Source of the DNA: Cupriavidus necator
GTDB taxonomy: Bacteria > Pseudomonadota > Gammaproteobacteria > Burkholderiales > Burkholderiaceae
Length of the DNA: 32,000 bases
NCBI RefSeq assembly: GCF_016127575.1
Contig: NZ_CP066018.1
Span: 1,500,001 to 1,532,000, forward strand
Direction of reading: 5' to 3'
The notes under the pieces: generated by a model
Database searches by the model: none
The model's input: only the letters and a program-made list of their open reading frames with translations
What the model was told of the DNA's origin: nothing
In this document: piece after piece, positions 5,014 through 31,003 of the stretch
How the letters are laid out: each line of letters starts with the position of its first letter
How positions within the stretch are numbered: position 1 is the first letter of the stretch
Made by a program: the position numbers and the translations under genes

Positions 5014-7513
5014 ACCGCAGCCCCTTCAAAAACACCTGCAAGGCCTGCGCCGCCGAATCGCGCTTTCCCTCAATCTCAGTCAGCGTCACTCGGTACTTAT
5101 CCCACCAGTTTTCGAATGCGACGACGATGGCCTTACGCTGGGCGGCGATGTAGCGCTCGACGATGGCGCGCATGTCGTTGTGCAGGATGGTCAGCAGCAG
5201 CTCGGCGGCCTGCTCGGGCGACAGACCATCCACCTCGCGATTGAGGTGCGCAGCGAAGCTATCCTTCTTGGCCTTCAAGGCTTTCTTCGCGGTAGCGAGT
5301 TCCTTCTTCCACGCCTTGAGCTGCGTTTCGTCGACCGCGTTGTCGTCGGCGGGTTCGTCTTCCGAAGACTCTGCGGCGTCACCTTCGTCGCCCTCGGCGT
5401 CCTTGCCAGATTTGGGGTCAGCAGCCTTGATTTGACTGTCCAGTTCAGCCCTCTTGGCCTCCAGCTCGTTGATGGCATCGACGAAGTCGCTCATCAGAAA
5501 CTTGACTAGCTTGTGGTCAAGTGGACTTTCCTTGTTCGCTTTGTCCTCCAGCGCAGTGACGATGCTGGTGCGCCAAGCGTCGGCCACGCCCTTGGCGCCA
5601 CGCGCCATCAGGGTGAGGAAGTCGTACTTCGTCTGGTACCAGAACCCAGCGACGATGCCGCGCACCTGGAAGGGGTCGAGCATACCGATCGCTTCCAGCG
5701 ATTCGCTAAAGCTAGCCAGCAGATCGTTGCGCAGGCCGACCAGACTGGCCGCATTGTCCATTTGCCCAGCAAGCAACGTAATACGCGCGCTATGCTGATG
5801 CCACCACTGCTCGAAAGCTGCGCGGATGGCGGCCTCCTTGGCGACAAGGCCGGCGTTTCTCTCGATGGAGGGCTTAAGGTCCCTGCGCTTGGCTAGCTCG
5901 GGTTTGAAGTCGACGTACTTCGCGTCACGCTCAACGAACAGGTCCATCGGGTTGAGGCCGTGCGCCGCGAACAGCGTCGACTTGGCCTGCACCTCGGCTT
6001 TTGGCACGCCCCCCACAAGATGCGCGCGCACGTCGTGTGGTTCGGGCGGTGGTGTGTTATCAGCGTAGCGGCGGATGTTGAGGTTGTAATCGTTGGCCTT
6101 GAGGGTGGCGTTGTCCACGATGGCCGAAAAGCCCTCTACCTGCTTGAACTCGTTGAAGGTGGTGACGATCTTCTCGATGTGTTCGGGTAGCAGATGGTTC
6201 TGCGCGCGGCCTTCGAAGAACTCCCGGTCGGCATTGATAAACAGCACCTTGCCCCGGCGCTCGGCGGGCTTGCCGCTAACGCGGTTGGCGCCGTTCTGCA
6301 CCCGCTGGCGCAGCACCAAAATACAGGCGGGGATGCCGGTGCCGTAGAACAGGTTGGGGGCGACGCCGAGCACGGCTTCGAGCAGGTCGTCCTCGACAAT
6401 GCCAGCCCGGATGGCCTTTTCCTCACCGCCACGGAACAGCACGCCGTGGGGCATGACGGTGGCGACCATGCCGCCGTCGCGGGTAACTGCCAGCATGTGC
6501 TGCAGGAACATGAGGTCGGCCTTCTTGGCGCCCAGCGGCACCTGGCCGTAACGGAAGCGCTCGGGGAACTTGGGCGACCAGGCAGGCGTTCCGTCGGCGT
6601 TCTTCTCCGTATTGCCCCAGTTGATGGAGAACGGCGGGTTGGTGAGCACCCGGTCGAAGTGCATTAATTCGCCGCCTTCGACGTGCTGCGGCTCGGCCAG
6701 GGTGTCCTCGTTCTGCAGGTTGGCAGTGCTGATGCCGTGCAGAAGCATGTTCATCTTGGCGATCGACCAGACGGTACCATTGAACTCCTGCCCGAACAGG
6801 TTGGCCTTGCGGCCGTCCTCGCCGTGCTCGTCGATGTATTCCTTGGCTGCGATCAGCATGCCTCCGGAGCCGCAACAGGGATCATAAATGTCGTGGGCCA
6901 AGGTCGGCTGGATCAGCCGCACCATCATACGCACCACCGAGCGCGGTGTGTAGAACTCGCCGCCTTTCTTACCGGCCGAGTCGGCGAACTCGCCGATCAA
7001 GTATTCGTAGGCCGCGCCGAGCAGATCGGGGAACTCGAAGTCCTCGTTACGTAGGCGATAGATGCCGAAGTGGGTAATCAGCTGGCGCAGCTTGATATCG
7101 GGGATCTTGCTCTGGCCAACCTTTCGCGTAAAGTCGATGTGCTCCAGCACGTCGTAGAGCTTGGTGTTGGCAGTCTCGATACCGCTCAATGCCTTGTTAA
7201 GCGAGTCACCGACATTTTGATGAGCCTCATCCAATAGGAACTTGTACCGCGATCGTGGTGGCACCCAGAAGTACTCGGCTCCCTTGTACCAGCGCTCCAG
7301 TTCCGCCGATTTTTCGGCGTTAGCGCGTGATTCACCCGCATTCATTCGCTCGGCGATGACTTCCTCGCGCCGCTGGTCGAACACGTCGGAGCAGCGCTTG
7401 AGGAACAGCATCCCGAAGATATATTCCTTGAACTCGGAAGCGTCCATCTTGCCGCGCAGGATGTCGGCGGCTTTGAACAAATGGCGCTCGAGCTGGGGTA
7501 ACGTAAGGGGCAT
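5006..7513 (-). CDS. hsdM: Type I restriction-modification N6-adenine DNA methyltransferase subunit, unusually long at 835 aa
   Basis: The N-terminus ([40 protein letters not shown]) is HsdM_N-like. SAM-binding motif I is [10 protein letters not shown] and catalytic motif IV is LTNPPFS. About 330 extra C-terminal residues follow [10 protein letters not shown]. Confidence 0.95.
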
Positions 7514-15649: not shown

Positions 15650-17317
15650 ATGGATATCAAACGCACCATCCTCTGGGTCATCTTCTCGATGTCCCTCGTG
15701 CTGCTCTACGACAACTGGCAGCGCTCCCAAGGCCATGCGTCGATGTTCTTCCCGAGCACGACCCAACAGGCCGCCTCGGCGCCCGCCGCCAGCGGCGCTG
15801 CCGCGCAGGGCGACGTGCCCAAGGCCAACGTGGCGCCAGGCGCAGCGGGTACCGCTGCCCCGGCCGCGCCGCAGGCCGCGGCCCAGCCCACCGGCGAGAA
15901 GGTCGTGGTGACCACCGACACGGTGCGCGCCGAGATCGACACCGCCGGCGGCATCGTGTCGCGCCTGGAGCTGCTCAAGGAGCATGAGAAGGACGGCAAG
16001 CCGGTGGTGCTGTTCGAGCGTGACAACGTGCGCACCTACATGGCACGCTCGGGCCTGATCGGCGGCGACCTGCCCAACCACACCACGGTGTTCACCGCCG
16101 CCCCGGGCCCGCGCACGCTGGACGGCGCCGAGCAGCTGGAAGTGGCGCTGACCGCCGAGAAGAACGGCGTGAAGCTGGTCAAGACCTATGTGTTCCGCAA
16201 GGGCAGCTATGTGGTCGACACCAAATTCGCGGTGACCAACGCGGGTGCCGCGCCGGTCTCGCCGACGCTGTACCTGGAGCTGGCGCGCGACGGCAGCAAG
16301 GTCGAGCAGTCGCAGTTCTACAGCACCTTCACCGGCCCGGCCGTCTACACCGACGCCGACAAGTACCACAAGATCGACTTCGAAGACATCGCCAAGGGCA
16401 AGGCCACCGTGCCGGCCGCCGCCAACAATGGCTGGGTGGCGATGGTGCAGCATTACTTTGCCTCGGCCTGGATCCCGCAGACCGGCAAGGAGCACAGCTT
16501 CTACGTCCAGCAGATCGATCCGCACCTGTACCGCGTGGGCGTGCAGCAGCCGCTGGGTGAACTGGCCCCGGGCGCCACGGTGACCACCGATGCACGCCTG
16601 TTCGCCGGCCCGCAGGAAGAGCACATGCTCGAGAAGATCGCCCCGGGCCTGGAGCTGGTGAAGGACTATGGCTGGCTGACCATCCTGGCCAAGCCGCTGT
16701 TCTGGCTGCTGGAGAAGCTGCACGGCTTCCTGGGCAACTGGGGCTGGTCGATCATCGCGCTGACGGTGCTGATCAAGCTGGTGTTCTTCCCGCTGTCGGC
16801 GGCGAGCTACAAGTCCATGGGCAAGATGAAGGACCTGCAGCCGCGCATGACGTCGATCCGCGAGCGTTACAAGAACGACCCGCAGAAGATGAACCAGGAG
16901 ATGATGGGGCTGTACAAGACCGAGAAGGTCAACCCGCTCGGCGGCTGCCTGCCCATCGTGATCCAGATCCCGGTGTTCATCGCGCTGTACTGGGTGCTGC
17001 TGTCGTCGGTGGAAATGCGCGGCGCGCCGTGGCTGGGCTGGATCCATGACCTGTCGGTGCCGGATCCGTTCTACATTCTGCCGATCGTGATGGCCGTGTC
17101 GATGTTCGTGCAGACCAAGCTGAACCCGACCCCGCCGGACCCGGTGCAGGCCAAGGTTATGATGATCATGCCGCTGGTGTTCTCGGTGATGTTCTTCTTC
17201 TTCCCGGCGGGCCTGGTGCTGTACTGGGTGGTGAACAACATCCTGTCGATCGCCCAGCAATGGCAGATCAACCGCATGCTCGGCAAGGGCAAGGCGGCAG
17301 TGGTGGCGAAGAGCTGA
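15650..17317 (+). CDS. yidC: Membrane protein insertase YidC, 555 aa
   Basis: Has an N-terminal TM segment, a large periplasmic domain, and the conserved C-terminal core ([36 protein letters not shown]...[19 protein letters not shown]...). Follows the canonical rpmH-rnpA-yidD-yidC order. Confidence 0.97.
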
Positions 17318-17340
17318 AGCTGTTGCAGGTTGCGGTAAGC

Positions 17341-17375
17341 AAAAAAGCCCGGCAGTGATGCCGGGCTTTTTGTTT
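17341..17375. terminator. Bidirectional intrinsic terminator between convergent yidC and the rubredoxin gene
   Basis: The sequence is AAAAAA-GCCCGGCA-GTGA-TGCCGGGC-TTTTTGTTT. It forms a perfect 8-bp GC-rich stem (17347-17354 / 17359-17366) with a 4-nt loop and A and T tracts on either side. Confidence 0.85.
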
Positions 17376-17424
17376 GATGGATCGGGGCGCTGACAGCCAT
17401 CACCCCTCATTGGCCACCGCCCGC

Positions 17425-17589
17425 CTATAGCGCAACCATGTCGAAATCCGCTTTCGCCATGCCGCAGTCCGGGCAGCTCCACTCCAGCGGGACCGCGCCC
17501 CACGGCGTGCCGGGCGCGATCCCGTGCTCGGGCATGCCGAGCGCTTCTTCATAAACGAATCCACAGATACGGCACTGCCAGATGGTCAT
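17425..17589 (-). CDS. Rubredoxin, 54 aa
   Basis: The protein is [54 protein letters not shown]. It carries the two CxxC knuckles (CRIC and CPDC) and conserved aromatic residues. ATG at 17589-17587 overlaps the stop of the upstream gene (ATGA). Confidence 0.92.
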
Positions 17590-18461
17590 GCGGCCCCCCG
17601 CAGCGAGGGCGCACGGGTGGAGACGCCGGCGGCGCGCGCGGTGTTTTCGATCTCTTCGACCAGCGGGGCGATGCGCGCCAGCTCGGCGCGGTTGTCGTCG
17701 TCCCACGGATGGAAGCCCGGGCGGAAGTAGCTGAGCCATTCCGGGATCATCTTGGGCAGCACGCCGGGCGAGGCCCACAAAAAGCGCAGCACGCCGCCAA
17801 ACCCGGTCAGCTTGTTGCGGCAGCCCTTGTCGCCCATCACCAGCGCGATGTGGAACACGAACACCATGGCCCAGAACGTCACCGTGGTGGTCAGCATGGT
17901 GAAGGTGCGCAGGAAGTAGCGGTAGGGGCCGGGCTTCATCACCGTGTTCCAGACATCGTAGGCCACGGCCTTGTGCTCGGTTTCTTCCAGTGCGTGCCAG
18001 GTCCACACCTGCCGGTAGCCGGTCTCAGAGGCCGCGCCCATGTGGCGCTGATCCTGCAGCAGGCCGCCGGCCAGCATCGCGGTGTAGTGCTCCAGCGCGA
18101 TGGTGTGGGCCAGCTGCCAGGACTTGGGCAGGATCTTGCGCAGCAGGTCCAGCAGCTTCCACACCGAGCGGTCCAGCGCCGCGGCGGGCAGGCCGGCGTC
18201 TTCCATCAGCCGGTTGTAGAGGATGTGCTCGCGCGTGTGCATCGCTTCCTGGCCGATAAAGCCGGCGATGGCGCGGCTCAGTCCGGGGTCTTTCACCTGG
18301 TCGCGGTAGTTGCGCACGCTGTCCATGAAGAAGCGCTCCCCGGCGGGGAAGAAGATCGACAGCGCGTTGATGAAATGGGTGACGTGACGGCCCCGTTCGT
18401 GCCAGTCGCTGATGCGTTCTGGCGGCAGGTGGGGATGCACGTCGCGGCGGACTGGCATCAT
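17586..18461 (-). CDS. Protein of the 'predicted metal-dependent hydrolase' type (PF10118-like, from memory), 291 aa, with a possible ferritin-like di-iron site
   Basis: ATG-ATG at 18461 is preceded by AAGGAGA, so I trimmed track ORF 17586-18674. The residues E42, E72xxH75, E124 and E160xxH163 are visible in the translation. A hydrophobic stretch occurs near residues 185-210. The gene is translationally coupled to the rubredoxin. Confidence 0.8.
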
Positions 18462-18508: not shown

Positions 18509-19471
18509 TTATTGGGCGGCCAGGAACGGCAGCAGGTCTGCTGCCACGCGTTGCGGGTCTTCTTCCATCGGCACATGGCCAAGCCCCGCGTAGCGGCGCA
18601 GCTGCGCGCCGGGGATGCGCTCGGTGAAGGCCTGCGCGTGCGCGGGCGGGATCCAGCGGTCGCGCTCGCCCCACAGCACCAGCGTGGGCGCGCGCACGCT
18701 GCCGAGCAGGTGGGTATCAAGCTGGGCAAAGTCGAGCCTGGGCACCATCTTGCCGACGGCCTCGCGGCTGCCTTCGGCGTAGAAGAAATCGACGTAGCGG
18801 CGGAAGGTGGACTCCGGCACGCGTGAAGCATCGCCATAGACGTCGCGCGTGGCGGCGCGGATGATGAACTCCGGCAGCATCCACGGTGCCGACCAGCGCA
18901 CCGGCGCATGGCGGAACAGGTCGATGTAGATCGGCAGCCGCATCTGGAAGCCGGCGGCGTCGATCAGCACCAGCTTGTCGACCGCATCGGGCCGGCGCAC
19001 CGCCAGGTCCCACCCGATCAGCCCGCCCAGCGAGTTGCCGATGATGCTGGCGCGGCGCACGTTCACCGCGGCCAGGAAGGCATCGATGAAGTCGCGGTAG
19101 CGGTGCACGTCCATGGTTTCGATGCGGCCGCGCGCATCGCGCAGCGGCCCGGTCAGCCCGAACGGGGCGAGGTCCAGCCGCAGCACGCGATAGCGCTGCG
19201 CCAGCGCCGGCACGATCCCCTGCCACGTATGCAGCGAAGCGCCGAAGCCGTGGATCAGCACCAGGGTCTCGCCGTCGGCGGGGCCTTCGTCGGTGTAGTG
19301 CACCATCGCATCCAGCACGCGCACCCAGCGCGAGGCCGGCAGCGCATGGCGCTGCGCCAGCGTGGCGCGCGACAGGCTGAACAGCCCTACGCGGCCCTGC
19401 CCGAACCAGCGCGTCAGCGCCCCCGGTGGCGCCAGCAGCGCAGCATCCTGTTCGATCGCGAGCCGGTTCAC
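18509..19471 (-). CDS. Alpha/beta-fold hydrolase (esterase/lipase-type), 320 aa
   Basis: The HG oxyanion motif (LVLIHGFGAS) and the nucleophile elbow GNSLGG (GxSxG) are present. A C-terminal His region reads YAGLGHVPMEE. The GTG start at 19471 overlaps the SDR stop (GTGA). Confidence 0.85.
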   Translation of the reverse strand: MNRLAIEQDAALLAPPGALTRWFGQGRVGLFSLSRATLAQRHALPASRWVRVLDAMVHYTDEGPADGETLVLIHGFGASLHTWQGIVPALAQRYRVLRLDLAPFGLTGPLRDARGRIETMDVHRYRDFIDAFLAAVNVRRASIIGNSLGGLIGWDLAVRRPDAVDKLVLIDAAGFQMRLPIYIDLFRHAPVRWSAPWMLPEFIIRAATRDVYGDASRVPESTFRRYVDFFYAEGSREAVGKMVPRLDFAQLDTHLLGSVRAPTLVLWGERDRWIPPAHAQAFTERIPGAQLRRYAGLGHVPMEEDPQRVAADLLPFLAAQ

Positions 19472-20358
19472 GGGCGCTCTCCCTGGCCGACCGAGGCCGG
19501 TGCGGCAACGGGGCCCAGATCGCGCTTGCGGCGCGTCTCGCGCACCACCAGCGACTGGTAGGCGGCGGGCAGCAGCCGCGCCATGGCATCGGCGGCGTAG
19601 GCGTCGGGTCCGATCAGCACGCGCCGGCGGTTGCGGCGCACGCCTTCCAGGATCACGCGCGCGGCCTTGTCGGGCGAGGTGATGAAGAATTTCTCGAACT
19701 CATCCTTGCCGTGCTGCGCGTCGCGCACCAGGAAGCCGTTGACGCTGGATGACACGCGGCTGGCCTGGGCGATATTAGTCTTGATGCCGCCCGGGTGCAC
19801 GGTGGTGGCCGACACGCCGCAGTCCATCAGGTCCAGCTCCTGCCGCAGCGATTCGGTGAAGCCGCGCACCGCGTACTTGCTGGCGTTGTAGGCGCCCATG
19901 CCGGGCTGGGCGAAGATGCCGAAGATGCTCGACGTATTGACCACGTGGCCGTCGCCGCTGGCCTTCAGGTACGGCAGGAAGGCCTTGGTGCCGTAGACCA
20001 CGCCCCAGAAGTTGATGCCCATGATCCATTCCAGGTCGTCGTAGCTCATGCCCTCGACGGTGCTGGACAGCGCCACGCCGGCGTTGTTGAAGATCAGGTT
20101 GATGCGGCCGTGGGCCTCGGCGGCCGCGGCGGCCCACGCGTAGACCGCGGCGCGGTCGGCCACATCCACGGTGTGCTGGGTGATGCGGGCCTGCGGTGCG
20201 GCGGCCATGGCCTGGGCCACGGTCTGCGCCAGCCCGGCCTCGTTGCGGTCTGACAGTGCCAGGTGGCAGCCCTGCCGTGCCAGCGCCACCGCCAGCGCGC
20301 GGCCGATGCCCGAGCCGGCGCCGGTGATCGCGGCAACCTTGTTGCGGAAGTCCTTCAT
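19468..20358 (-). CDS. Short-chain dehydrogenase/reductase (classical SDR), 296 aa
   Basis: Has the TGAGSGIG cofactor motif, NNAG, and the catalytic YNASK (YxxxK). The ATG at 20358 is preceded by AAGGAGA, so I trimmed track ORF 19468-20427. Confidence 0.9.
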   Translation of the reverse strand: MKDFRNKVAAITGAGSGIGRALAVALARQGCHLALSDRNEAGLAQTVAQAMAAAPQARITQHTVDVADRAAVYAWAAAAAEAHGRINLIFNNAGVALSSTVEGMSYDDLEWIMGINFWGVVYGTKAFLPYLKASGDGHVVNTSSIFGIFAQPGMGAYNASKYAVRGFTESLRQELDLMDCGVSATTVHPGGIKTNIAQASRVSSSVNGFLVRDAQHGKDEFEKFFITSPDKAARVILEGVRRNRRRVLIGPDAYAADAMARLLPAAYQSLVVRETRRKRDLGPVAAPASVGQGERP

Positions 20359-20419
20359 GTCCGGTCTCCTTCCGGTGATGTCGTTCTTTTGGGTGTGAAC
20401 CAGGGGGAATGCGTGTGCG

Positions 20420-21994
20420 TCAGGCACCGGCGACCGTGGCGATATCGGCCGGCCCGGGCTGCATTGCGGTCTCGTCCGGCAATGCGCGCCGCACCGGGTA
20501 CAGGTCGTAGTCGGTCATGCGGAAGCTGGCCGTGGCGCGGCGGAACTGCCAGGTGAAGCCCGGCCACAGCGTGGTGTTGCGGCCGCTGCGCGGGTCGATG
20601 TACCAGCTGGCGCAGCCGCCGGCGGACCAGATCGCATGGCCCAGCCGCGCCTGCAGCCGTTCGTTGAAGCGGCGCTGCACCGGCTCGCGCACGTCCACCG
20701 CCTGCACGCCTTCGCGGCGCATCTGCTGCAGGGCGTCCGCGATGTAGGCCACCTGCGACTCGATCATGAACACCATCGAGCTGTGGCCCAGGCCGGTATT
20801 GGGGCCGACCACGAAGAACAGGTTGGGGAAGCCCGCCACGGTGGTGCCCAGGTAGGCCTGCGCGCCGTCGCGCCAGGCATCGACCAGGTCCACGCCGTCA
20901 AGGCCGGAGATCACGCCGCGCGGCAGCGGGTCGGTGGCATGGAAGCCGGTACCCAGGATGATGCAGTCGGCGGGCCGGCGCGTGCCGTCGCGCAGCACGA
21001 CCGCGTCGCGCTCAACGCGGGCGATGCCGGTGGTGACCACGTCCACGTTGTCGCGTGTCAGCGCCGGGTAGTAGTCGTTGGAGATCAGCACGCGCTTGCA
21101 GCCGATGGTGTAGTCCGGCGTCAGCGTTGCGCGCAAGGCGGGGTCGCGCACCTGCCTGGCCAGATGGCGGCGTGCGACGCGCTCCACCACCTTCATGATC
21201 TTCGGATGCAGCACGAAGCCCAGCACGCGCGATTCCAGCATCCAGTAGATGCCGGTGCGCACCAGCGTCTGCGTGAACGGCAGGCGGCGGAACAGCCAGC
21301 GCTCGGTCGCGCTGACCTCGCGGTCCGGCTTGGGCATGATCCACGGCGGGGTGCGCTGGTACAGGTCCAGCTGCGCCACCTGGGGCGCGATCTGCGGCAC
21401 GAACTGGATCGCGCTGGCGCCGGTGCCGATCACCGCCACGCGCTTGCCAGCGAGCGCATAGGCGTGGTTCCAGTGCTGCGAGTGGAAGCACTCACCCTCG
21501 AACGAGTCCAGCCCCGGGATATTGGGGTAGGAAGGCCGGCTCAGCCCGCCCATGCCGGAGACCAGCACGCGCGCGCGCACCACCTTGCCGTCTGCCATCT
21601 CCAGGCGCCACACCTGCGCGGCCTCGTCCCAGGCGGCGTGGCGTAGTTCATGGTGCAGCCGCAGGTGCGGGCGCAGGCCGAAGCGGTCGGTGCAGCCTTC
21701 CAGGTAGGCGCGGATCTCCGGCTGGGTCGAGAACATGCGCGACCAGTCGGGGTTCGGCGCGAATGAAAAGGAATACAGGTGCGACTGCACATCGCAGGCG
21801 CAGCCCGGGTAGTGGTTGTCGCGCCAGGTGCCGCCGACGGAGCCGGCTTTCTCGAAGATCAGGAAGTTGCGCTCGCCGCGTTCGCGCAGCCGTATCGCCA
21901 TGCCGAGGCCGGCAAAGCCACTGCCGATGATGGCAATGTCTGTGTGCTCAAGGGCAGGGGATGCCTGCTGCGGCAGCTCCGCGGGTGCATTCAT
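20420..21994 (-). CDS. Type I Baeyer-Villiger / class B flavoprotein monooxygenase (EthA/AlmA-like), 524 aa
   Basis: The FAD Rossmann motif is IAIIGSGFAG, followed by GGTWRDNHYPGCACDV. The BVMO fingerprint FxGxxxHxxxW appears as FEGECFHSQHW (residues 165-175). The second Rossmann motif is VAVIGTGASA. A GAGGAG Shine-Dalgarno lies before the ATG at 21994. Confidence 0.9.
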   Translation of the reverse strand: MNAPAELPQQASPALEHTDIAIIGSGFAGLGMAIRLRERGERNFLIFEKAGSVGGTWRDNHYPGCACDVQSHLYSFSFAPNPDWSRMFSTQPEIRAYLEGCTDRFGLRPHLRLHHELRHAAWDEAAQVWRLEMADGKVVRARVLVSGMGGLSRPSYPNIPGLDSFEGECFHSQHWNHAYALAGKRVAVIGTGASAIQFVPQIAPQVAQLDLYQRTPPWIMPKPDREVSATERWLFRRLPFTQTLVRTGIYWMLESRVLGFVLHPKIMKVVERVARRHLARQVRDPALRATLTPDYTIGCKRVLISNDYYPALTRDNVDVVTTGIARVERDAVVLRDGTRRPADCIILGTGFHATDPLPRGVISGLDGVDLVDAWRDGAQAYLGTTVAGFPNLFFVVGPNTGLGHSSMVFMIESQVAYIADALQQMRREGVQAVDVREPVQRRFNERLQARLGHAIWSAGGCASWYIDPRSGRNTTLWPGFTWQFRRATASFRMTDYDLYPVRRALPDETAMQPGPADIATVAGA

Positions 21995-22025: not shown

Positions 22026-22071
22026 TGACATTGATGGATGTCATCGTAGGAAGCGCAGGGCAGGTGGTCAA
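22026..22071 (-). promoter_or_regulatory. Candidate sigma70 promoter with an overlapping inverted repeat (possible operator) upstream of the BVMO operon
   Basis: The minus strand has TTGACC (22071-22066), a 17-nt spacer, then TACGAT (22048-22043). This is immediately followed by the inverted repeat TGACAT-N6-ATGTCA (22026-22043). Pattern match only. Confidence 0.3.
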
Positions 22072-22250: not shown

Positions 22251-23324
22251 CTAGGCGGCCTGGCCCTTGCGGCGCCAGCCGTGCGGCGTTTCACCGGTCC
22301 AGCGCTTGAAGGCGTGGGTGAAGGCACTCTGCTCGGAATAGCCGAGCCGCATCGCGCACTGCGCCAGGCTGATGCCGGGATCGGCAAGATACTGCTCCGC
22401 CAGCGCGCGCCGCACGTTATCCACAAGCTGTGAATAACTGATGCCCTGCGCCTGCAGCCGCCGCTGCAGGGTGCGCACGGGCAGGCTCAGGTGCGCGGCC
22501 ACGTCGGCAATCGGCAGTTCGCCCTGCGGCAGCCGCCCGCTGATATAGGCACGCGCCTGCGCCAAGGCGTCGGCCCCGGCCGGCGCGATCTGCTGCAGCT
22601 GGGTATCGGCGATGCGCGTCATCTGCGCCTGCATGCCCGCGTCGGCCTGCAGCGACGGCAGGTCCAGCAAGGCCCGTTCGATATGCATGGCATGGCGCGC
22701 GGCGTTGAAGACCACGGGGCAGCCGAACACCTCGGCATGCAGGCGGGTATCAGCGGGCGCGGGATGCGGGAATTCCACCTGGGTGGCCACGTGCTGCTCA
22801 CCGATCAGCCAGCGCGCGAACACCACCCAGGTTGCCATGTGCAGCTCATGCGCATGGCGCGACAGCGGGCCATGCCGGGCTTCCCAGGTCATGCAGGCGG
22901 CATGCGGCGTTTCGATCAGGCGGGTGCCGCCGATATCGTTGGCCAGCACCTCATAGCGGATGCCTTGCAGGATGGCGTCGCGCACGGTGGGCGTGGTCAG
23001 CACCACGTAGCCCATCTCGGCATAGTGGCGCGGCGCGAAGGCGGCGCCGGCGCGCAGGCCGACATCGGGATCGCCGGTGACCTGCTCCAGCCAGTCGAGC
23101 AGGGCCAGGTAGGCGGCACCGGGAATGCGCGTGGCGGTCTGCGCACCGGTGGCATGCAGCAGCTCGGGCGGCACGCCGACGGCGCGCAGCTGTTCGGCCG
23201 GGGCAATGCCCTGGCGCGCGCCGTGGTCGAGCACGGCGCGGAGGTAGGCGAGCGAGACGGTGCCCAATGCGGTGCCCGCTTGCGTACCACTGGCACCGCC
23301 GTCGGGCTGGTTGGCGCGTGGCAT
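22251..23324 (-). CDS. AraC/XylS-family transcriptional regulator with an N-terminal ligand-binding domain, 357 aa
   Basis: The C-terminal double HTH reads IADVAAHLSLPVRTLQRRLQAQGISYSQLVDNVRRALAEQYL...LAQCAMRLGYSEQSAFTHAFKRWTGETP. The track start at 23327 is TTG, and I used the adjacent ATG at 23324. Confidence 0.9.
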   Translation of the reverse strand: MPRANQPDGGASGTQAGTALGTVSLAYLRAVLDHGARQGIAPAEQLRAVGVPPELLHATGAQTATRIPGAAYLALLDWLEQVTGDPDVGLRAGAAFAPRHYAEMGYVVLTTPTVRDAILQGIRYEVLANDIGGTRLIETPHAACMTWEARHGPLSRHAHELHMATWVVFARWLIGEQHVATQVEFPHPAPADTRLHAEVFGCPVVFNAARHAMHIERALLDLPSLQADAGMQAQMTRIADTQLQQIAPAGADALAQARAYISGRLPQGELPIADVAAHLSLPVRTLQRRLQAQGISYSQLVDNVRRALAEQYLADPGISLAQCAMRLGYSEQSAFTHAFKRWTGETPHGWRRKGQAA

Positions 23325-23439
23325 CAATTCACCTGTCGTGCGGGATCAAGACCGGGCACCGATCTTTATCCATACTCCGGGTAGCGTCAATGCGGGCCTG
23401 CCCCCGCCTGAATACAAGAGACCGACGCAAGGAGACAAC

Positions 23440-24045
23440 ATGGCCCCCAATCATCCACACCGCCGTGCGGATGCCGATGCCGAGGCGCTGCACGCGCTGA
23501 CGCGGCGCGGCTTCCTGAAAGTCGGCCTCGGCTTCTCGGCCGCGCTGGCCTGTACCGCGCTGGTGCCGTCGCTGGCCGGCTGCTCATCGGCCCATCCCGC
23601 GCCGCAGGCCGGCATGACCTGGCTGCGACCGGAAGACGTGGCGATGTTGCGCGCGCTGCTGCCGGCCATCGTCACCGAGCTGGCCGAAGCGCCGCCGCCG
23701 CGGCGCGCGGCCCTGGAGCAGGACGCGCTGCGCAATATCGACGCGACCTGCGCCGCGATGGGCGCGGGCGCGCAAGCCGAGCTGCGCAAGCTGTTCGGAC
23801 TGCTTGCCAGCATGCCGCTGCGCTGGGCGCTGACCGGCATCCGCCAGGACTGGAGCGCGGCCACGCCCACGCAGGTGCAGGCCTTCCTGGCGCGCTGGCG
23901 CGCCAGCCGCCTGGCCACGCTCAATGCCGGCGCGGTGGTGCTGGTCAAGCTCATCAGCGTGAGCTACTACGTGTTGCCGGCCGCATGGGCGGGCAGCGGC
24001 TATCCCGGCCCGAACGCGGCCGTCTACAAGGCGCTGCACGCCTGA
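23440..24045 (+). CDS. TAT-signal lipoprotein, the small subunit partner of a GMC flavoprotein (gluconate 2-dehydrogenase subunit-3-like), 201 aa
   Basis: The ATG at 23440 is preceded by AAGGAGA. A twin-arginine motif TRRGFLK is followed by a hydrophobic region and the lipobox LAGC. The gene lies immediately upstream of a signal-less GMC oxidoreductase. The family name is from memory. Confidence 0.7.
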   Translation: MAPNHPHRRADADAEALHALTRRGFLKVGLGFSAALACTALVPSLAGCSSAHPAPQAGMTWLRPEDVAMLRALLPAIVTELAEAPPPRRAALEQDALRNIDATCAAMGAGAQAELRKLFGLLASMPLRWALTGIRQDWSAATPTQVQAFLARWRASRLATLNAGAVVLVKLISVSYYVLPAAWAGSGYPGPNAAVYKALHA

Positions 24046-24053
24046 TCCCCGAC

Positions 24054-25649
24054 ATGGCCATCGACAATCTCTACGACGCCGGCATCGCCGCCGGCTGGAA
24101 GGTACTGGACGCTGCCACCTTCACCACCACGCGCACGCTCGATGCCGACGTCGTCATCGTCGGCAGCGGCGCGGGCGGCGGCATCAGCGCCGAGGCGCTC
24201 AGCCGCGCGGGCCTGCGCGTGGTGCTGCTGGAAGAGGGAGCGCTGCGCACCTCGGACAGCTTCCGCGACATGGACGAGAACCGCGCCTATCGCGAGCTGT
24301 ACCAGGAGGCCGCGGCCCGCACCACGGCCGACGGCGCCATCGCCATCCTGCAGGGCCGCTCCGTCGGCGGCAGCACCACGGTCAACTGGTCGTCGAGCTT
24401 CCGCACGCCGCCGCAGACGCTGGCGCACTGGGCCACGCATCACGCCGTCACCGGCCACAGCGAGGCCGACATGGCGCCGTGGTTCAGGAAAGTGGAAGAG
24501 CGCCTGGGCATCGCGCCATGGGCGATGGCGCCCAATCCCAACAACGACGTGCTCAAGCGCGGCTGCGAGACGCTGGGCTGGGAATGGCACGTGATCCCGC
24601 GCAATGTGAAGGGCTGCTGGAACTCCGGCTATTGCGGGCTGGGCTGCCCGGTCAATGCCAAGCAGTCGATGCTGGTATCGACCATCCCCGCGGCACTGGC
24701 CAGCGGTGCGACGCTGGTGCACCGCGTGCGTGTGCGCACGCTGGACCATGACGGCAAGCGCGTGCAGTCGGTCACCGGCGAGGCGCTGGGCGCCGATGGC
24801 TACACGCCCACCGGCGTCGGCGTGATCGTGCGGGCCAGGCACTTCATCGCCGCCGGCGGCGCCATCAACACGCCGGCGCTGCTGCTGCGCTCGCGCGTGC
24901 CGGACCCGCATGAGCGGCTGGGACTACGCACGTTTATCCATCCGGTGAATATCAGCATCGCAAAAATGCCGGAGCGCATTGATCCTTATTATGGCGCACC
25001 GCAGTCGATCGCTTCCGACCACTTCCAGTGGAAGGACGGTGCGACCGGGCCGATGGGCTACAAGCTGGAGGTGCCGCCGCTGTTCCCCGGCATCAGCGCG
25101 GGCGTGGTCAACGGCGTGGGCGAGGCACTGCGCCGCGACATGGCGCAACTGCCCCATACCAACGCCATGCTGGCATTGCTGCGCGACGGCTTCGTGCCAG
25201 AGAGCACGGGCGGGCGCGTGCGGCTGGCACCCGACGGCAGCCCGCTGCTGGACTATGAGATGAGCGACTACGCCTGGGACGGCGTGCGGCGCGCGTGGCT
25301 GAGCATGGCGCAGGCGCAGTTTGCCGCCGGCGCGGAGCGCGTGCGGCCCGCCCACCTGGACGCCGCCGAGTACCGCAGCTGGCCCGAGGCGCGCGACGCC
25401 ATCGCGCAACTGCCGCTCAAGCCTTTCCGCACCGCGCTGTTCACCGCGCACCTGATGGGCGGCTGCGGCATGAGCGACGATGCGCGCGGCGGCGTGGTGG
25501 ACAGCCATGGCAACCACCACCAGCTGGCCAACCTGTCGGTGTTCGACGGCTCGGTGTTCCCGACCAGCGTGGGGGCCAATCCCCAATTGTCGGTGTTCGC
25601 GCTGACGGCGCAGAATGCGCACGCGCTGGCACGGAGCCTCACGTCATGA
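24054..25649 (+). CDS. GMC-family FAD-dependent oxidoreductase, 531 aa
   Basis: The N-terminal FAD motif is DADVVIVGSGAGGGISAEALSRAGLRVVLLEEG. The C-terminal GMC-type block is HLMGGCGMSDDARGGVVDSHGNHHQLANLSVFDGSVFPTSVGANPQ. I used the ATG at 24054 within track ORF 23985-25649. No signal peptide is present. Confidence 0.9.
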   Translation: MAIDNLYDAGIAAGWKVLDAATFTTTRTLDADVVIVGSGAGGGISAEALSRAGLRVVLLEEGALRTSDSFRDMDENRAYRELYQEAAARTTADGAIAILQGRSVGGSTTVNWSSSFRTPPQTLAHWATHHAVTGHSEADMAPWFRKVEERLGIAPWAMAPNPNNDVLKRGCETLGWEWHVIPRNVKGCWNSGYCGLGCPVNAKQSMLVSTIPAALASGATLVHRVRVRTLDHDGKRVQSVTGEALGADGYTPTGVGVIVRARHFIAAGGAINTPALLLRSRVPDPHERLGLRTFIHPVNISIAKMPERIDPYYGAPQSIASDHFQWKDGATGPMGYKLEVPPLFPGISAGVVNGVGEALRRDMAQLPHTNAMLALLRDGFVPESTGGRVRLAPDGSPLLDYEMSDYAWDGVRRAWLSMAQAQFAAGAERVRPAHLDAAEYRSWPEARDAIAQLPLKPFRTALFTAHLMGGCGMSDDARGGVVDSHGNHHQLANLSVFDGSVFPTSVGANPQLSVFALTAQNAHALARSLTS

Positions 25650-25917: not shown

Positions 25918-26892
25918 ATGAAGACCGGCAAAAGCTCGGCAGGAGACACCAAGGCCCGGATTCTCGACGCCACGGAAAAGTTGTTTACCGAGGTCGGCTA
26001 TGAAGCCACCTCGCTCAGGCAGGTCACGTCGCGCGCCATCGTCAACCTGGCCGCCGTGAACTACCACTTCCGCAGCAAAGATATCATGATGCACGCCGTG
26101 CTGAGCCGGCGGCTGGATCCGCTCAACGCGCGGCGCCTGGCGCTGCTCGATGCGTGCGAAGCGCGCTGGCCCGGCAACAGCATCCGCTGCGAGCACGTGA
26201 TGGGTGCGCTGTTCGTGCCCGCGCTGCAAATGGCACGCGACCCGTCGGTGGGCGGGCCGTCGTTCCTGCGGCTGCTCGGGCGCGTGTATTCGGATACCTC
26301 GCCCTTTATCCAGCAATACCTGCTGGAGCACTACGCCCCGGTGTACGGGCGCTTCTTCGACGCCTTCTCGCGCGCCATTCCGGCGCTGCCGCGGCATGAG
26401 CTCGGCTGGCGCCTGCAGTTTGCGCTCAAGGCGCTGGCCGGCGTGCTGGCCGGCGAAGAGCTCACCAACCTGCTGCCCGCGTTCACGCAGGGCCGGCAGA
26501 TGAGCGATGCGCACGTGCTGGCCCAGCTCACCGCCATGGTGGAAGCCGTGCTGAACGTGGCGCAACCCAGTGCGGACGACTTCTCGGCCCTGCAGTCGGT
26601 GTTCGAGCTTGGCGAGCAGCAGCAGGCCAGGGAGCGCGCCAGCAGGCTGGCCGCGGCGCGGTCTGCCGATGAACTGAGTGCCAGTTGCGCCGCGATGGCG
26701 GCAACCATGGGCGATGCGGCCAGCCAGACCGCCGCCGCCCTCGGCAAGGCCCGCATCAGCGCACGCACCGTGCGCAATGAGGGCACCAAACGCTCAGCCG
26801 TGACCAGCATGCCGGTCCGCGCGCGCGAGCAAACCGTGAGCTTCCCCAGCAACCCGCTGGATGACTGGATGCGAATGCGCACCAGGACATAG
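25918..26892 (+). CDS. TetR/AcrR-family transcriptional regulator with a long C-terminal extension, 324 aa
   Basis: The N-terminal HTH is TKARILDATEKLFTEVGYEATSLRQVTSRAIVNLAAVNYHFRSKD. About 100 Ala/Ser/Arg-rich extra residues follow the usual TetR length. Confidence 0.9.
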   Translation: MKTGKSSAGDTKARILDATEKLFTEVGYEATSLRQVTSRAIVNLAAVNYHFRSKDIMMHAVLSRRLDPLNARRLALLDACEARWPGNSIRCEHVMGALFVPALQMARDPSVGGPSFLRLLGRVYSDTSPFIQQYLLEHYAPVYGRFFDAFSRAIPALPRHELGWRLQFALKALAGVLAGEELTNLLPAFTQGRQMSDAHVLAQLTAMVEAVLNVAQPSADDFSALQSVFELGEQQQARERASRLAAARSADELSASCAAMAATMGDAASQTAAALGKARISARTVRNEGTKRSAVTSMPVRAREQTVSFPSNPLDDWMRMRTRT

Positions 26893-27098
26893 CGGCGCGC
26901 GCCGCACCCGGTTACCGCCGGGCCGGCGCCACCGCCCTCACGCAAAAACTGAACCGTCGATCCATCCAGCGAGGCCACGCACAGGCCCCGCGGACCCCGT
27001 GCGCCTTATCGGATTTTCCAAGGGCGCGGCGGTGGCCCCGTTCGCCCTGCGCTGCCCGCGCTCCGCCTCCTGGCGGACATCTTGAGGAGGAAGCTGCC

Positions 27099-27995
27099 AT
27101 GTCGATCCAACCGCTTTACCTTGCCGCCGTCGCCGGTGCCGTCATCGGACTGCTGGCTGCGCCACTGGCCATGCCCCCGGTGGCCATGGCCCAGACGGCC
27201 ACAACCACCGCCGCCGCGGGCACGGGCTATGACGGCCAGACATCCGCACAGCAAGCCGCACTGTTCTCGCGCCAGGTCGCCAGCGGCGAACTCGCGCGGC
27301 TGTCCGATGAGCAGGTGCTGGCCGTGTTCCAGGCGCTGCAGCCGGACGCGCTGCTGAAATGGGCCCGTGCCGAGATGAACCGCTATCCCGAGTACGAGTA
27401 CTGGATGTCGCGCCAGGAACGGCTCAACAACCAGTGGCAGGACCAGCCCGCCAGGATGCAGATCCGCTACCGCCACCAGCCGCGCCAGCTCTATGCCAAG
27501 TGGCTGCCCGGCGGCGCGCAGTCGGGACAGGAAATCATCTACGACGAGACCCGCCGCAAGGACGAGATGTACGGCCACCTGGGCGGCGTGCTGGGCTTCA
27601 CCTCGATGTGGATTGCGCTGGACGGCACGCTGGCGCGCTCGCAGTCCAACCACACCGTGCGCGACCTGGGCTTCCAGTTCGTGCTGTCGATGCTGGAGCG
27701 CGACGCCAGGTCCCTGCGTGCCGCCGGCCTGTCCGAGAAGTACAGCAAGGCCGAGATCGTGCAGGAGCAGGGCGTGCGCATGGTGGCGCTGACCTGGGAC
27801 CTGCCGGCCGGCGCGCCGCAGTACTACGCCAAGAAGGTGCAGCTGATGCTGGACCTGAAGCATCCGTATATCCGCGTGGAAACCGCCTGGGATGCCGACG
27901 GCAACATGGTCGAGAAGATCGTGTTCGACAAGCTGGTGCGCAAGACCTTCGAGGCCTCGGCGTTCGATCCGGCCAATCCTGACTATCGCTTCTGA
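27099..27995 (+). CDS. Secreted protein, DUF1571-like (family assignment from memory), 298 aa
   Basis: A GAGGAGG Shine-Dalgarno precedes the start, and GC3 codon bias is strong. The Sec signal peptide ends in AMA-Q. The mature part reads ...MQIRYRHQPRQLYAKWLPGG...EIIYDE...RKDEMYGH...DPANPDYRF. The gene is real with high confidence, but the family name is only moderately supported. Confidence 0.75.
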   Translation: MSIQPLYLAAVAGAVIGLLAAPLAMPPVAMAQTATTTAAAGTGYDGQTSAQQAALFSRQVASGELARLSDEQVLAVFQALQPDALLKWARAEMNRYPEYEYWMSRQERLNNQWQDQPARMQIRYRHQPRQLYAKWLPGGAQSGQEIIYDETRRKDEMYGHLGGVLGFTSMWIALDGTLARSQSNHTVRDLGFQFVLSMLERDARSLRAAGLSEKYSKAEIVQEQGVRMVALTWDLPAGAPQYYAKKVQLMLDLKHPYIRVETAWDADGNMVEKIVFDKLVRKTFEASAFDPANPDYRF

Positions 27996-27998
27996 GAT

Positions 27999-28053
27999 GC
28001 GGCAAAGCGGCGCGCACCGTGCGTTTGAATCGGTGGCTGCGCCGCTTTGCCGC
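27999..28053 (+). other. Long perfect stem-loop (15-bp arms) immediately after the DUF1571-like gene
   Basis: GCGGCAAAGCGGCGC (27999-28013) pairs with GCGCCGCTTTGCCGC (28039-28053). An inner 5-bp extension pairs CACCG with CGGTG (28015-28019 / 28031-28035). The structure starts 4 nt after the stop codon and has no U-tract. Confidence 0.5.
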
Positions 28054-28246
28054 GCAGTCCGTGCAACACCCGCAATCCACCGCCACGTGCGGCATGCACG
28101 CCAGGCGCGCCTGTTTGGAACGGCCGCTCTATTGACGCAAAAACACGCGAGCGGCGAGAGTCGCCGCACCCGGGAGGGATCCGGCCGCAGAGCCGGACAC
28201 CAGATCCAGAACCAGGGGTCGCCAAGAAAAAATCAGGAGACAGGCA

Positions 28247-29599
28247 ATGACCATGTCGATGCTTCGACGCAGCACTTTGGTTTTGACAGGGGTGAGCCTT
28301 GCCGCGGCGCTGGCCGGCTGCGGTGGCGGCGGCGGCGATGAAGAGGCGCCGCGCGCCGGCACGCAGGCACCGCAATGCGCTGACACGGGCACGTGCCCCG
28401 CGCAGGGGCCGGTCACCATCGGCGGCCCGCCGGGGTCGTTGTGCCCGGCGGCACTGGACTACAGCACCACCTTCACCGGCGGCTCCGGCGCGGGCGAACT
28501 GGTGAAGCTGCGCTTCGACACCGCGGCCCGCACCTACCAGCTGGAGATCATCGAGTCGCCGGTGCCCAAGCAACCCGGCAGCGTCAGCCCGACGCGCGCG
28601 GGCGTGACTTTCACCGGCACCTTCGCCAACCTGACCTCGCTGCCGACCGCCGAGCAGAACCGCTGCGCAGTCGCGCTGCAGACGGCCACCGCATCCGACG
28701 GCACCTCGCAGGCCAATATCGACAGCGCCAGGCCGCCGGTGATCTTCCTGGGCAATGGCGTTGCCGGCGGCGGCATCCCCGGTGCCACCATCTCCTATCC
28801 GGGCGTGCTCGGGCTGGGTGCGATCCCGGCCACCACGTTCCCGTTCTACCCGGTGCTGGCATTCGCACAGACCGAGACCGACTTCACCAGGGTGGCCGGC
28901 AGCTACAACCTGCTGGGCTACCACCAGGTGCCGTCCGGCGGCTCGCTGACTTCGTCGAGCCACTTCACGCCCGCGACCGCGCAGACCACCGAGACGCTGA
29001 ACGCCGACGGCAGCTGCACGGCCGCGGCCGGCAGCTGCCTCAGCACCGGCAACAGCTGGAAGCTGCGCAGCGCCGATGGCGCCTTCGAAAGCAGCAATGC
29101 CGATGGCAGCCGCCGTTACCCGTCGTTCCAGAGTGCGGCCATCACCAGCAACAACGCCAGCCGCGCCAAGGGGCTGATGGTGGTGGGCAAGCTCAACGGC
29201 GCACTGGTGCCGCTGCTGGTGCGCACCGGCTACGCGCAGATCTCGCTGCTGCCACTGACGGTCAATGTCGACGACGAATCGGGCCTGGCACTGATGGCGC
29301 CGGCGAAGGCACTGGCCAGCGGCCAGCTTGACGGCGGCTATATCGGCTCGGGCAGCGACTTTGTCTACACCGCCTCGCTGGTCAAGGGCACGCGCGTGGA
29401 GCTGCTGGACCCGATGACGATGAACCAGACCGGTGCCTTCCAGCTCGACTTCACGCAGAACGCGCCGGGAATGATCGCCACCACCGACAACAGCGGCACC
29501 ACCGGTGCGCTGATTGCCAGCGGGCGCGTGTTCAGCCACCTGTCCGGCACCGGCAGCGCCAGCCCGACCTTCCGCGTCGGCGTGCTGGCAGCACCCTGA
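28247..29599 (+). CDS. Lipoprotein of unknown function, paralog A (possibly DUF2957-like, from memory), 450 aa
   Basis: An AGGAGA Shine-Dalgarno precedes the start. The signal peptide has the lipobox LAGC (Cys25) followed by a GGGGGDEE linker. GC3 bias is strong. The protein aligns along its full length with the next gene. Confidence 0.85.
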   Translation: MTMSMLRRSTLVLTGVSLAAALAGCGGGGGDEEAPRAGTQAPQCADTGTCPAQGPVTIGGPPGSLCPAALDYSTTFTGGSGAGELVKLRFDTAARTYQLEIIESPVPKQPGSVSPTRAGVTFTGTFANLTSLPTAEQNRCAVALQTATASDGTSQANIDSARPPVIFLGNGVAGGGIPGATISYPGVLGLGAIPATTFPFYPVLAFAQTETDFTRVAGSYNLLGYHQVPSGGSLTSSSHFTPATAQTTETLNADGSCTAAAGSCLSTGNSWKLRSADGAFESSNADGSRRYPSFQSAAITSNNASRAKGLMVVGKLNGALVPLLVRTGYAQISLLPLTVNVDDESGLALMAPAKALASGQLDGGYIGSGSDFVYTASLVKGTRVELLDPMTMNQTGAFQLDFTQNAPGMIATTDNSGTTGALIASGRVFSHLSGTGSASPTFRVGVLAAP

Positions 29600-29636
29600 G
29601 TCCACCAAGAACACACAAAACCGAGGAGACCACGCC

Positions 29637-30917: not shown

Positions 30918-30929
30918 GCACGCTGCCAG

Positions 30930-30958
30930 GCCCGGGCCATTGCAGCCCGGGCCACTGC
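30930..30958 (+). repeat. Tandem 14-nt direct repeat GCCCGGGCCA(T/C)TGC, two copies, upstream of the OmpW-family gene
   Basis: The copies are at 30930-30943 and 30945-30958 and differ at one position. Each contains the palindrome GGCCCGGGCC or most of it. Confidence 0.4.
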
Positions 30959-31003
30959 GCCACGATCCGACCATACAGAGACATCCACTGCCGGGGACAC
31001 AAG

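Follow-up and report, generated by a model that had tools for sequence, protein, structure and literature searches.

What does a protein named 'metal-dependent hydrolase' have to do with a rubredoxin whose start codon overlaps its own stop codon? The question is raised by a locus of Cupriavidus necator in the 32,000-nucleotide stretch of contig NZ_CP066018.1 (positions 1,500,001 to 1,532,000) that was analysed here and is called the window. The 291-amino-acid (aa) product belongs to the Pfam family PF10118 ('Metal_hydrol') and carries the name 'metal-dependent hydrolase' at NCBI, as expected in an earlier note, made from the sequence alone, which had suspected that the pair forms an unrecognised rubredoxin-dependent di-iron oxygenase. 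In this study, we concluded that the window protein is most likely an AurF/CylC-type ferritin-like, oxygen-activating di-iron enzyme of an uncharacterised family, as judged from its sequence and a structural model. PF10118 can best be regarded as a new branch, still uncharacterised and misleadingly named, within a known kind of enzyme. We consider it probable that its members are redox-active ferritin-like dimetal enzymes and not hydrolases, and the reading as a whole, a di-iron oxygenase or oxidase with the rubredoxin as its donor, is given a probability of about one half.

Conserved residues and predicted fold of the PF10118 protein

The window protein matched PF10118 (Metal_hydrol / COG3687 / UCP07580) over its full length, from residues 5-256 on profile positions 2-247 of 247 (E 2e-84, 283.6 bits, cut-off 33.2), and this was the sole Pfam family detected. 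Its nearest homologue is that of Cupriavidus lacunae (97% identity). An exhaustive homologue search of 1.84 billion representatives yielded 2,856 clusters (50% identity) matching the window protein, and 129 full-length representatives with 29-53% identity were used as the conservation set. It had been claimed that the protein carries an E...ExxH...E...ExxH arrangement with E42, E72/H75, E124 and E160/H163 as metal ligands; the numbering and the E-to-ExxH spacings of 30 and 36 residues were correct, and the six named residues were invariant in 129/129 homologues. This loose pattern arises in about 2.4% of shuffles of the single sequence, and in one sequence it is by itself only suggestive. The list of ligands was right for the six and incomplete beyond them: the columns invariant in all 129 sequences are P39, E42, Q71, E72, H75, H79, E124, H125, H156, E160, H163 and P252, which adds Q71, H79, H125 and H156, and E159 (99%, 128/129), E162 (96%) and H251 (96%) are conserved in at least 96%, followed by G41 (95%) and D169 (93%). 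Invariance extends to 4 of the 16 Glu and 5 of the 14 His of the window protein, and the proposed six are all among those nine. In the structural model described below, the two ExxH motifs fall on different helices, with a carboxylate-bearing helix ahead of each, and the residues concerned were conserved throughout (129/129).

The first motif, Q71-E72-A-M-H75, is a QExxH where AurF has DExxH, and the second, H156-A-L-E159-E160-T-E-H163, holds a third His four residues ahead of the second ExxH Glu. It has been reported that the third His of AurF and CmlI is located on the same core helix as the second ExxH (PMC7848743), that AurF has a 3-His/4-carboxylate site with D135 and D226 in the second sphere, and that the CylC/NocO dimetal halogenases conserve QExxH and HxxDExxH (PMC12101540). 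Because PF10118 combines QExxH with HxxEExxH, it resembles the AurF/CylC branch at the motif level, and not the 2-His hydroxylases or R2. The site predicted from the sequence likely comprises E42, E72, H75, E124, H156, E160 and H163, that is, three His and four carboxylates, with Q71 and E159 as likely second-sphere residues. The extra His of AurF/CylC type was absent from the earlier note, as was the conserved link to monooxygenase, dehydrogenase and esterase genes described below.

An AlphaFold2 model built with 26 homologues was confident (mean predicted local distance difference test score 89.8, predicted template modelling score 0.88) and entirely helical, and the candidate ligands are all located within its long helices (38-50, 59-88, 113-136 and 147-174). 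When the model was compared with the PDB by Foldseek, the first 24 matches were all, and the top 50 mostly, ferritin-like dimetal proteins (probability up to 1.00), namely ribonucleotide reductase R2, R2lox, CmlI, acyl-ACP desaturases and VlmB. The helical bundle suspected from the sequence may thus be present, the top fold matches being nearly all R2, R2lox, CmlI and desaturases, though weak. The top 50 contained no hydrolase, no heme-oxygenase-like protein and no rubrerythrin; a heme-oxygenase-like di-iron oxidase, which we had considered, was rejected on this ground. In a permissive Pfam scan of the 129 members, weak matches to AurF appeared in 24 (best E 1.2e-4), to COQ7 in 8 and to Rubrerythrin in 7, three families that are all of the ferritin-like di-iron kind, and no further family recurred in more than 3 of the 129. 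The AurF match of one member (P0204) was colinear, its second half lying on that of the profile, with residues 100-206 on profile positions 137-239 (13.3 bits). Nothing was obtained when the family profile was aligned by hhalign to NrdB or PaaA of E. coli as single sequences, or when the N-terminal and C-terminal halves were compared with each other for the internal repeat of ferritins.

The hydrophobic segment pointed out in the earlier note is real. It covers residues 183-209, with a 19-residue Kyte-Doolittle maximum of 1.89 against a family median maximum of 1.74, and the corresponding helix is the most hydrophobic one in 93/129 homologues.

Compared with AurF and CmlI (PF11583; 3CHT, 5HYH), PF10118 would have a similar helical ferritin-like fold, CmlI being among the fold matches of its model. 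It shares the order carboxylate...ExxH...carboxylate...HxxD/EExxH, in which the helix of the second ExxH also carries the third His, and it gives the weak Pfam cross-matches (24/129). It differs in having Q71 for D135 of AurF and E159 for D226, in matches that stay below the PF11583 threshold, in the extra conserved H79, H125 and H251 together with the conserved hydrophobic helix, and in a context of ketone/ester catabolism instead of arylamine natural-product clusters. The likeness to CylC, BrtJ and NocO, which is drawn from motif descriptions, concerns the pair QExxH and HxxD/EExxH. These enzymes act on unactivated fatty-acyl carbons and need a one-electron carrier and NADPH in vitro. In particular, NocO attacks an unactivated fatty-acyl carbon, and its in vitro activity requires NADPH together with ferredoxin and ferredoxin reductase. 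It is thus a precedent both for chemistry at an alkyl C-H and for the use of a small one-electron donor. CylC-type enzymes and PF10118 were alike long unannotated, and the former were recognised via remote AurF similarity. In contrast to PF10118, the CylC type belongs to cyanobacterial biosynthetic clusters and takes acyl chains bound to a carrier protein, of which none is encoded here; PF10118 keeps E124 without exception, whereas the equivalent CylC Glu is proposed to swing out for halide. R2lox and R2 gave the best fold matches (7ail, 6f6f, 4hr0 and 4ac8; TM 0.44-0.47, Foldseek probability up to 1.0), and R2lox binds a long-chain fatty acid. The R2 and R2lox proteins are without the third His that PF10118 has, no radical-site tyrosine was assignable in PF10118, and the R2 profile comparison was not significant.

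The operon and its coupled rubredoxin

The PF10118 gene belongs to a five-gene minus-strand operon in the order monooxygenase, dehydrogenase, hydrolase, PF10118 and, as the last gene, rubredoxin (Table 1). The monooxygenase and dehydrogenase genes overlap by 8 bp and the dehydrogenase and hydrolase genes by 4 bp; a gap of 47 bp separates the hydrolase gene from the PF10118 gene downstream, whose start is preceded by an AGGAG box. The ATGA overlap of PF10118 and rubredoxin, which had been noted before, was read directly. The window monooxygenase matches phenylacetone and cyclohexanone monooxygenases (E 1e-76 to 1e-70).

Table 1. Positions of the operon genes, the sites within them and adjacent features in the window (- or + strand; residue numbers refer to the PF10118 protein).
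Feature	Position	Strand	Remarks
PF10118 gene	17589..18461	-	291-aa product, begins MMPVRR; candidate ferritin-like di-iron oxygenase/oxidase
E42 codon (FPAGERFF)	18336..18338	-	Proposed carboxylate ligand, first core helix; model helix 38-50
Codons 71-79, QEAMHTREH	18225..18251	-	First QExxH (Q71, E72, H75) and invariant H79; model helix 59-88
E124-H125 codons (IALEHY)	18087..18092	-	Proposed carboxylate ligand, third core helix, and invariant His; model helix 113-136
Codons 155-164, HxxEExxH	17970..17999	-	H156, E159, E160, H163; model helix 147-174
Hydrophobic helix, residues 183-209	17835..17915	-	Within model helix 179-210
ATGA stop/start overlap	17586..17589	-	Translational coupling of PF10118 (TGA stop 17586-17588) and rubredoxin (ATG 17587-17589)
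Rubredoxin gene	17425..17589	-	54 aa; proposed one-electron donor
Alpha/beta-hydrolase	18509..19471	-	Candidate esterase; PF00561, E 3.5e-28
Short-chain dehydrogenase/reductase	19468..20427	-	PF00106, E 1e-46
Type I Baeyer-Villiger monooxygenase	20420..21994	-	First gene of the operon; FMO-like Pfam families
Promoter-like site	22043..22071	-	Upstream of monooxygenase gene; 9/12 consensus, pattern match only
AraC-family regulator with Arabinose_bd domain	22251..23327	-	PF12625 (E 1e-41), PF12833; upstream of operon
GMC oxidoreductase	23985..25649	+	PF00732, PF05199; beyond AraC gene, opposite direction
G+C-rich hairpin (GCCCGGCA-TCAC-TGCCGGGC)	17341..17371	.	A run and T run on the flanks; read directly

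The 54-aa open reading frame (ORF) is a canonical rubredoxin (PF00301, E 3.6e-20, 72.2 bits, cut-off 23) with the motifs CRICG...CPDCG. It is best matched in the PDB (E 5e-23) by aerobic rubredoxins that go with alkane hydroxylases; P. aeruginosa Rd2 (2v3b) is one of them, and its closest solved relatives further comprise rubredoxins of mycobacteria and the rubredoxin domain found in an AlkB fusion (8f6t). The arrangement recalls AlkB/AlkG, where a rubredoxin passes single electrons to a non-heme di-iron enzyme whose substrates are alkyl chains, and the window rubredoxin resembles the AlkB-associated ones. AlkB is an integral-membrane histidine-box enzyme of unrelated fold, whereas PF10118 is without such a domain and has at most one hydrophobic helix. 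An AlkB-type enzyme was rejected as a candidate for the window protein, in which the Pfam scan detected PF10118 only and which has a single hydrophobic helix and no histidine-box membrane domain. AhyA was set aside as well, being an anaerobic alkane hydroxylase in the papers found and not an aerobic one of the present kind. A parallel in gene arrangement is provided by nrdB-yfaE of E. coli K-12 (L088:385-1769), in which a di-iron gene is likewise overlapped, by one base, by the gene of a one-electron carrier, the small ferredoxin YfaE, annotated as serving diferric cofactor maintenance.

Among Cupriavidus and its relatives, the rubredoxin gene was present with the same overlap in C. lacunae (L081), a metagenomic relative (L082, L083), the USMAA2-4 group (L085-87) and Cupriavidus sp. 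NPDC089707 (L176). It was absent from C. plantarum, C. pampae and Cupriavidus sp. OV096 (L001-L003), from the Cupriavidus group with P0007 (L090-92), from Ralstonia (L004, L005, L043) and from Paraburkholderia (L006 and others). A neighbour-joining tree separates the rubredoxin-positive proteins from the negative ones, and its outgroups are rubredoxin-negative, which fits an adjacency that arose once, within a single Cupriavidus clade. The ATGA junction was kept in five Cupriavidus lineages (L081, L082, L085 and L176 among them) together with the four Cys, and the changes relative to L085 numbered 10, 8 and 33 at codon positions 1, 2 and 3. On this pattern, with junction and Cys retained and changes mostly at third positions, the gene is maintained by purifying selection in the positive clade, across lineages whose PF10118 proteins diverge to 83% identity.

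The nearest rubredoxin outside Cupriavidus (63% identity; L173:3943-5165, also L174 and L175) has a 4-bp (ATGA) overlap with a Rieske/VanA_C-type oxygenase gene, with a LysR regulator adjoining. It thus seems that rubredoxins of this type are found repeatedly as add-on donors downstream of different oxygenase genes. The other operon enzymes, namely monooxygenase, dehydrogenase and hydrolase, rely on NAD(P)H or need no cofactor, so that PF10118 is the sole plausible client of the rubredoxin within the operon. Given the coupling conserved in the clade and the same kind of attachment of the nearest outside rubredoxin to a Rieske oxygenase gene, the best reading, by analogy, is that the rubredoxin would donate electrons to the PF10118 protein encoded upstream.

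Dehydrogenase, monooxygenase and hydrolase steps make up the known route by which subterminally oxidised alkanes, methyl ketones and cycloalkanols are degraded. The chn, mek, M. tuberculosis mymA and AlmA-type clusters likewise contain a monooxygenase, a dehydrogenase, an alpha/beta-hydrolase and an AraC regulator, and none of those described is known to include a PF10118 gene. Wax-ester synthases lie near the mymA operon, as they do near some PF10118 loci.

The neighbourhood of the family was assessed in 80 loci, one per bacterial species, with relatives at 39-83% identity. A short-chain dehydrogenase was found in 33/80 loci, a Baeyer-Villiger monooxygenase 42-80% identical to that of the window in 28/80 (32/80 when distant flavin monooxygenases are counted too) and alpha/beta-hydrolases, forming two clusters of 14 loci, in about 28/80. 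MerR regulators (24/80), a glycolipid-binding protein (11/80), wax-ester synthases (7/80) and AraC regulators with an Arabinose_bd domain (7/80) also recurred. The chance of meeting such a monooxygenase gene in a neighbourhood of this size was roughly estimated at below 1%. Genes for monooxygenase, dehydrogenase, PF10118 and hydrolase come together in Cupriavidus, Ralstonia, Paraburkholderia, Burkholderia, Pseudomonas and several marine gammaproteobacteria. Their order takes at least three forms among these Burkholderiales and gammaproteobacterial lineages, which speaks for a functional link and not for inherited synteny. Fusions occur as well: PF10118 with an alpha/beta-hydrolase of the same family as the window hydrolase (P0269, 619 aa), an acyltransferase (PF19576) with PF10118 (P0257, 538 aa), and, next to the PF10118 paralogues of Zhongshania and Ketobacter, proteins of about 590 aa that join a hydrolase to a dehydrogenase (L059:8989-10785; L049:9625-11373). 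At the level of sequence, these fusions reinforce the link of PF10118 to hydrolase and dehydrogenase functions.

PF10118 carriers are rich in oil degraders, including Alcanivorax, Marinobacter, Thalassolituus, Zhongshania and Oleiphilaceae. In a proteomic study of Thalassolituus, the hydroxylase starting the subterminal route was 'not identified' (PMC6304351). In Acinetobacter venetianus RAG-1, two adjacent 'metal-dependent hydrolase' genes, ORFs 1533/1534, are reported to be 143-fold and 28-fold up on dodecane versus dodecanol, and both P. aeruginosa and Alcanivorax borkumensis possess homologues (PMC5074533). Should these genes belong to PF10118, they would provide expression evidence for a role specific to alkanes.

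Tandem PF10118 paralogues are common (L064, L033, L039, L040, L045, L049, L062). Thalassolituus maritimus has three PF10118 genes in a row between glyA and nrdR-ribD (L064:3465-6801), and paired paralogues occur in Salinisphaera, Ketobacter, Alcanivorax and others.

Proposed chemistry and rival explanations

Considering the above results, we infer a plausible scheme that covers the identity of the metal, the chemistry with O2, the rubredoxin as donor, the substrate and the reaction. A diferric site would be converted to the diferrous state through one-electron reductions, the electrons being supplied in most lineages by general ferredoxins or rubredoxins and, in the one Cupriavidus clade that includes the window, by the downstream coupled rubredoxin as a dedicated donor. 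The diferrous site would take up O2 and oxidise a lipophilic substrate lodged by the conserved hydrophobic helix 183-209. A role as hydroxylase is proposed because the subterminal, methyl-ketone and cycloalkanol modules lack an enzyme that forms the secondary alcohol: PF10118 would supply this missing step, from an alkyl or cycloalkyl C-H to the secondary alcohol, which would then pass to ketone, ester and hydrolysis. Such a specific hydroxylase role is a tentative proposal that we place on the unlikely side. The same holds for its fullest form, a doubtful one at present, in which PF10118 proteins would be hydroxylases starting the Baeyer-Villiger-dependent subterminal oxidation of alkanes, cycloalkanes and long alkyl chains, and would constitute a new ferritin-like class of di-iron alkane hydroxylases, widespread among oil degraders, whose electrons would come from rubredoxin in Cupriavidus and from general ferredoxins in other organisms.

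Several results weigh against the reading of PF10118 as a di-iron oxygenase or oxidase. The Foldseek matches were weak (E 0.02-1, best 0.024; TM 0.38-0.47), all AurF (PF11583) matches were below the gathering score of 29.6 bits, with none for the window protein itself, and an hhalign comparison with an 81-sequence R2 alignment from viral contigs was not significant (probability 0.6%), although E72/H75 were aligned in it with E115/H118 of NrdB. Sequence searches of the PDB with the window protein, the 129-sequence profile and P0204 gave chance matches or none. Fold, residues and weak Pfam matches are concordant, and no line is individually significant; the invariant His and Glu also outnumber the needs of a standard di-iron site, so the true site may differ. 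In the neighbourhood, an enrichment of rubredoxin genes beside the family, which the earlier note had made a test of its proposal, did not appear. A rubredoxin was found within 6 kb of PF10118 in 0/80 species-level loci, when 6 kb on either side were searched by tblastn and by a CxxCG...CPxC scan that recovers the window's rubredoxin, and no other electron carrier was a conserved neighbour in these loci. The pair proposed in the earlier note as a rubredoxin-dependent di-iron oxygenase is therefore backed in its di-iron motif, weakly in its predicted fold, and in a coupling conserved in the Cupriavidus clade, and fails as a trait of the family. A nearby monooxygenase is missing from 48/80 loci, and some PF10118 copies lie amid housekeeping genes, for example in L064. 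Finally, the literature searched under the family's identifiers, with subscription-only literature outside its scope, gave no experimental data on any member.

If the protein is a ferritin-like di-iron enzyme, its chemistry may still be another, such as that of a desaturase, a deformylating or decarboxylating oxidase, a heteroatom oxygenase like AurF or an R2lox-like lipid oxidase, acting elsewhere in lipid, wax-ester or ketone metabolism. The 3-His/4-carboxylate pattern is largely typical of N-oxygenases and CylC-type enzymes and not of hydroxylases (PMC12101540), the best TM-scores were to R2lox, the neighbours include wax-ester synthases, a glycolipid-binding protein and acyl-CoA dehydrogenase besides the acyltransferase fusion, and the loci without a monooxygenase gene fit as well. 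No nitrogen-metabolising neighbour is conserved, in contrast, and what the four-gene module lacks, as inferred from the subterminal and cycloalkanol pathways, is exactly a hydroxylase. The computation does not separate these chemistries. We regard this alternative as possible, with a rather low probability. Less likely still is that the rubredoxin has a different client, such as an unlinked hydroxylase of the AlkB type supplying the alcohol, and landed at the end of the operon, leaving PF10118 without a redox partner. Such a history would suit the clade-specific adjacency and the resemblance to AlkB-associated rubredoxins, and co-regulation with an alkane-related operon would remain sensible, yet the 4-bp overlap has been preserved while the PF10118 proteins diverged to 83% identity, the nearest relative overlaps an electron-requiring oxygenase gene in the same way, and no alkB gene lies within the window.

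Two further explanations seem very improbable to us. A rubrerythrin-like peroxidase or protective di-iron protein would use rubredoxin electrons to reduce H2O2 or organic peroxides arising from uncoupled turnover of the monooxygenase. In rubrerythrins, a ferritin-like di-iron domain cooperates with a rubredoxin-type centre, 7/129 members match Pfam Rubrerythrin weakly, and the co-occurring flavin monooxygenase can leak peroxide. The absence of rubrerythrins from the top 50 fold matches speaks against it, together with the lack of a rubredoxin at nearly all family loci, the conserved hydrophobic helix and the lipid-enzyme fusions, which suggest a lipophilic substrate, and the extra His, which is an AurF/CylC feature; moreover, the window protein had no match to Rubrerythrin PF02915, and no rubredoxin fusion was seen among 150 representatives. 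The database name would be right if the protein were a true metal-dependent hydrolase with a Zn, Fe or Mn site, acting for instance on the monooxygenase product, an ester or lactone, the rubredoxin being incidental or structural. The many invariant His and Glu could form a hydrolytic two-metal site, and the ester product of the operon needs hydrolysis. This need is already covered by the alpha/beta-hydrolase of the module, which is fused to PF10118 in P0269, and redox chemistry is suggested by the coupled rubredoxin, whose type is also seen behind the gene of a Rieske oxygenase. The name itself rests on no curated model or experiment: no NCBIfam model exists for the PF10118 protein of the window, and neither a curated hydrolase model, nor a PDB sequence match to a hydrolase, nor a hydrolase among the top 50 fold matches was found. 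As far as sequence and model comparisons reach, the hydrolase label is without support from an NCBIfam model, from the sequence of a solved hydrolase or from fold matches.

Members of this large family bear the name 'metal-dependent hydrolase' almost uniformly. If the di-iron oxygenase or oxidase reading is true, thousands of these annotations are wrong, and a new AurF/CylC-type branch would be open to enzymology and biocatalysis. Given its conserved place in the operon, PF10118 is a testable candidate for the first step of subterminal oxidation of alkanes and alkyl chains, to which its frequency in Alcanivorax, Marinobacter, Thalassolituus, Zhongshania and their kin adds relevance. The Cupriavidus protein with its own rubredoxin would be a handy two-gene system for reconstitution.

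Surroundings of the operon in the window

Downstream of the rubredoxin gene, the G+C-rich hairpin is likely, from its sequence, a two-way terminator common to the end of the rubredoxin gene and the convergent yidC. A simple scan for terminators did not list it, the probable reason being that its A run pairs with its T run, which lengthens the stem. A rearrangement breakpoint lies directly after the window rubredoxin, beside the replication-origin region: MerR, LysR and TctC genes follow the operon in C. lacunae and relatives, whereas yidC, yidD, rnpA and dnaA are found here (window 17317-17425 compared with L081:7037-9009).

The upstream side is syntenic, with the AraC gene, a gene of no known family and the GMC oxidoreductase gene. 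The AraC regulator is kept in the Cupriavidus relatives and also adjoins PF10118 in Marinobacter and other loci. The position of the GMC oxidoreductase is conserved in L081, L082 and L085-87; it may be an accessory alcohol oxidase. Directly upstream of its gene, a plus-strand ORF of about 200 aa (23260-24045) had no Pfam match and is conserved in the Cupriavidus relatives (201-212 aa in L081, L082 and L085); it may encode a small subunit of the GMC oxidoreductase. The region downstream of the GMC oxidoreductase gene (25918-31843) encodes a TetR regulator and a DUF1571 protein, besides two DUF2957 paralogues whose genes overlap (28247-29599 and 29514-30917) and an outer-membrane protein of the OmpW family (31004-31843). 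Hydrophobic compounds are taken up through proteins of the OmpW/AlkL type, and the region may be an uptake module for the substrates of the operon.

At the other end of the window, a complete type I restriction-modification system (425-7513, minus strand) consists of hsdR (425-3745), hsdS (3745-5013) and hsdM (5006-7513) and adjoins gyrB, dnaN and dnaA.

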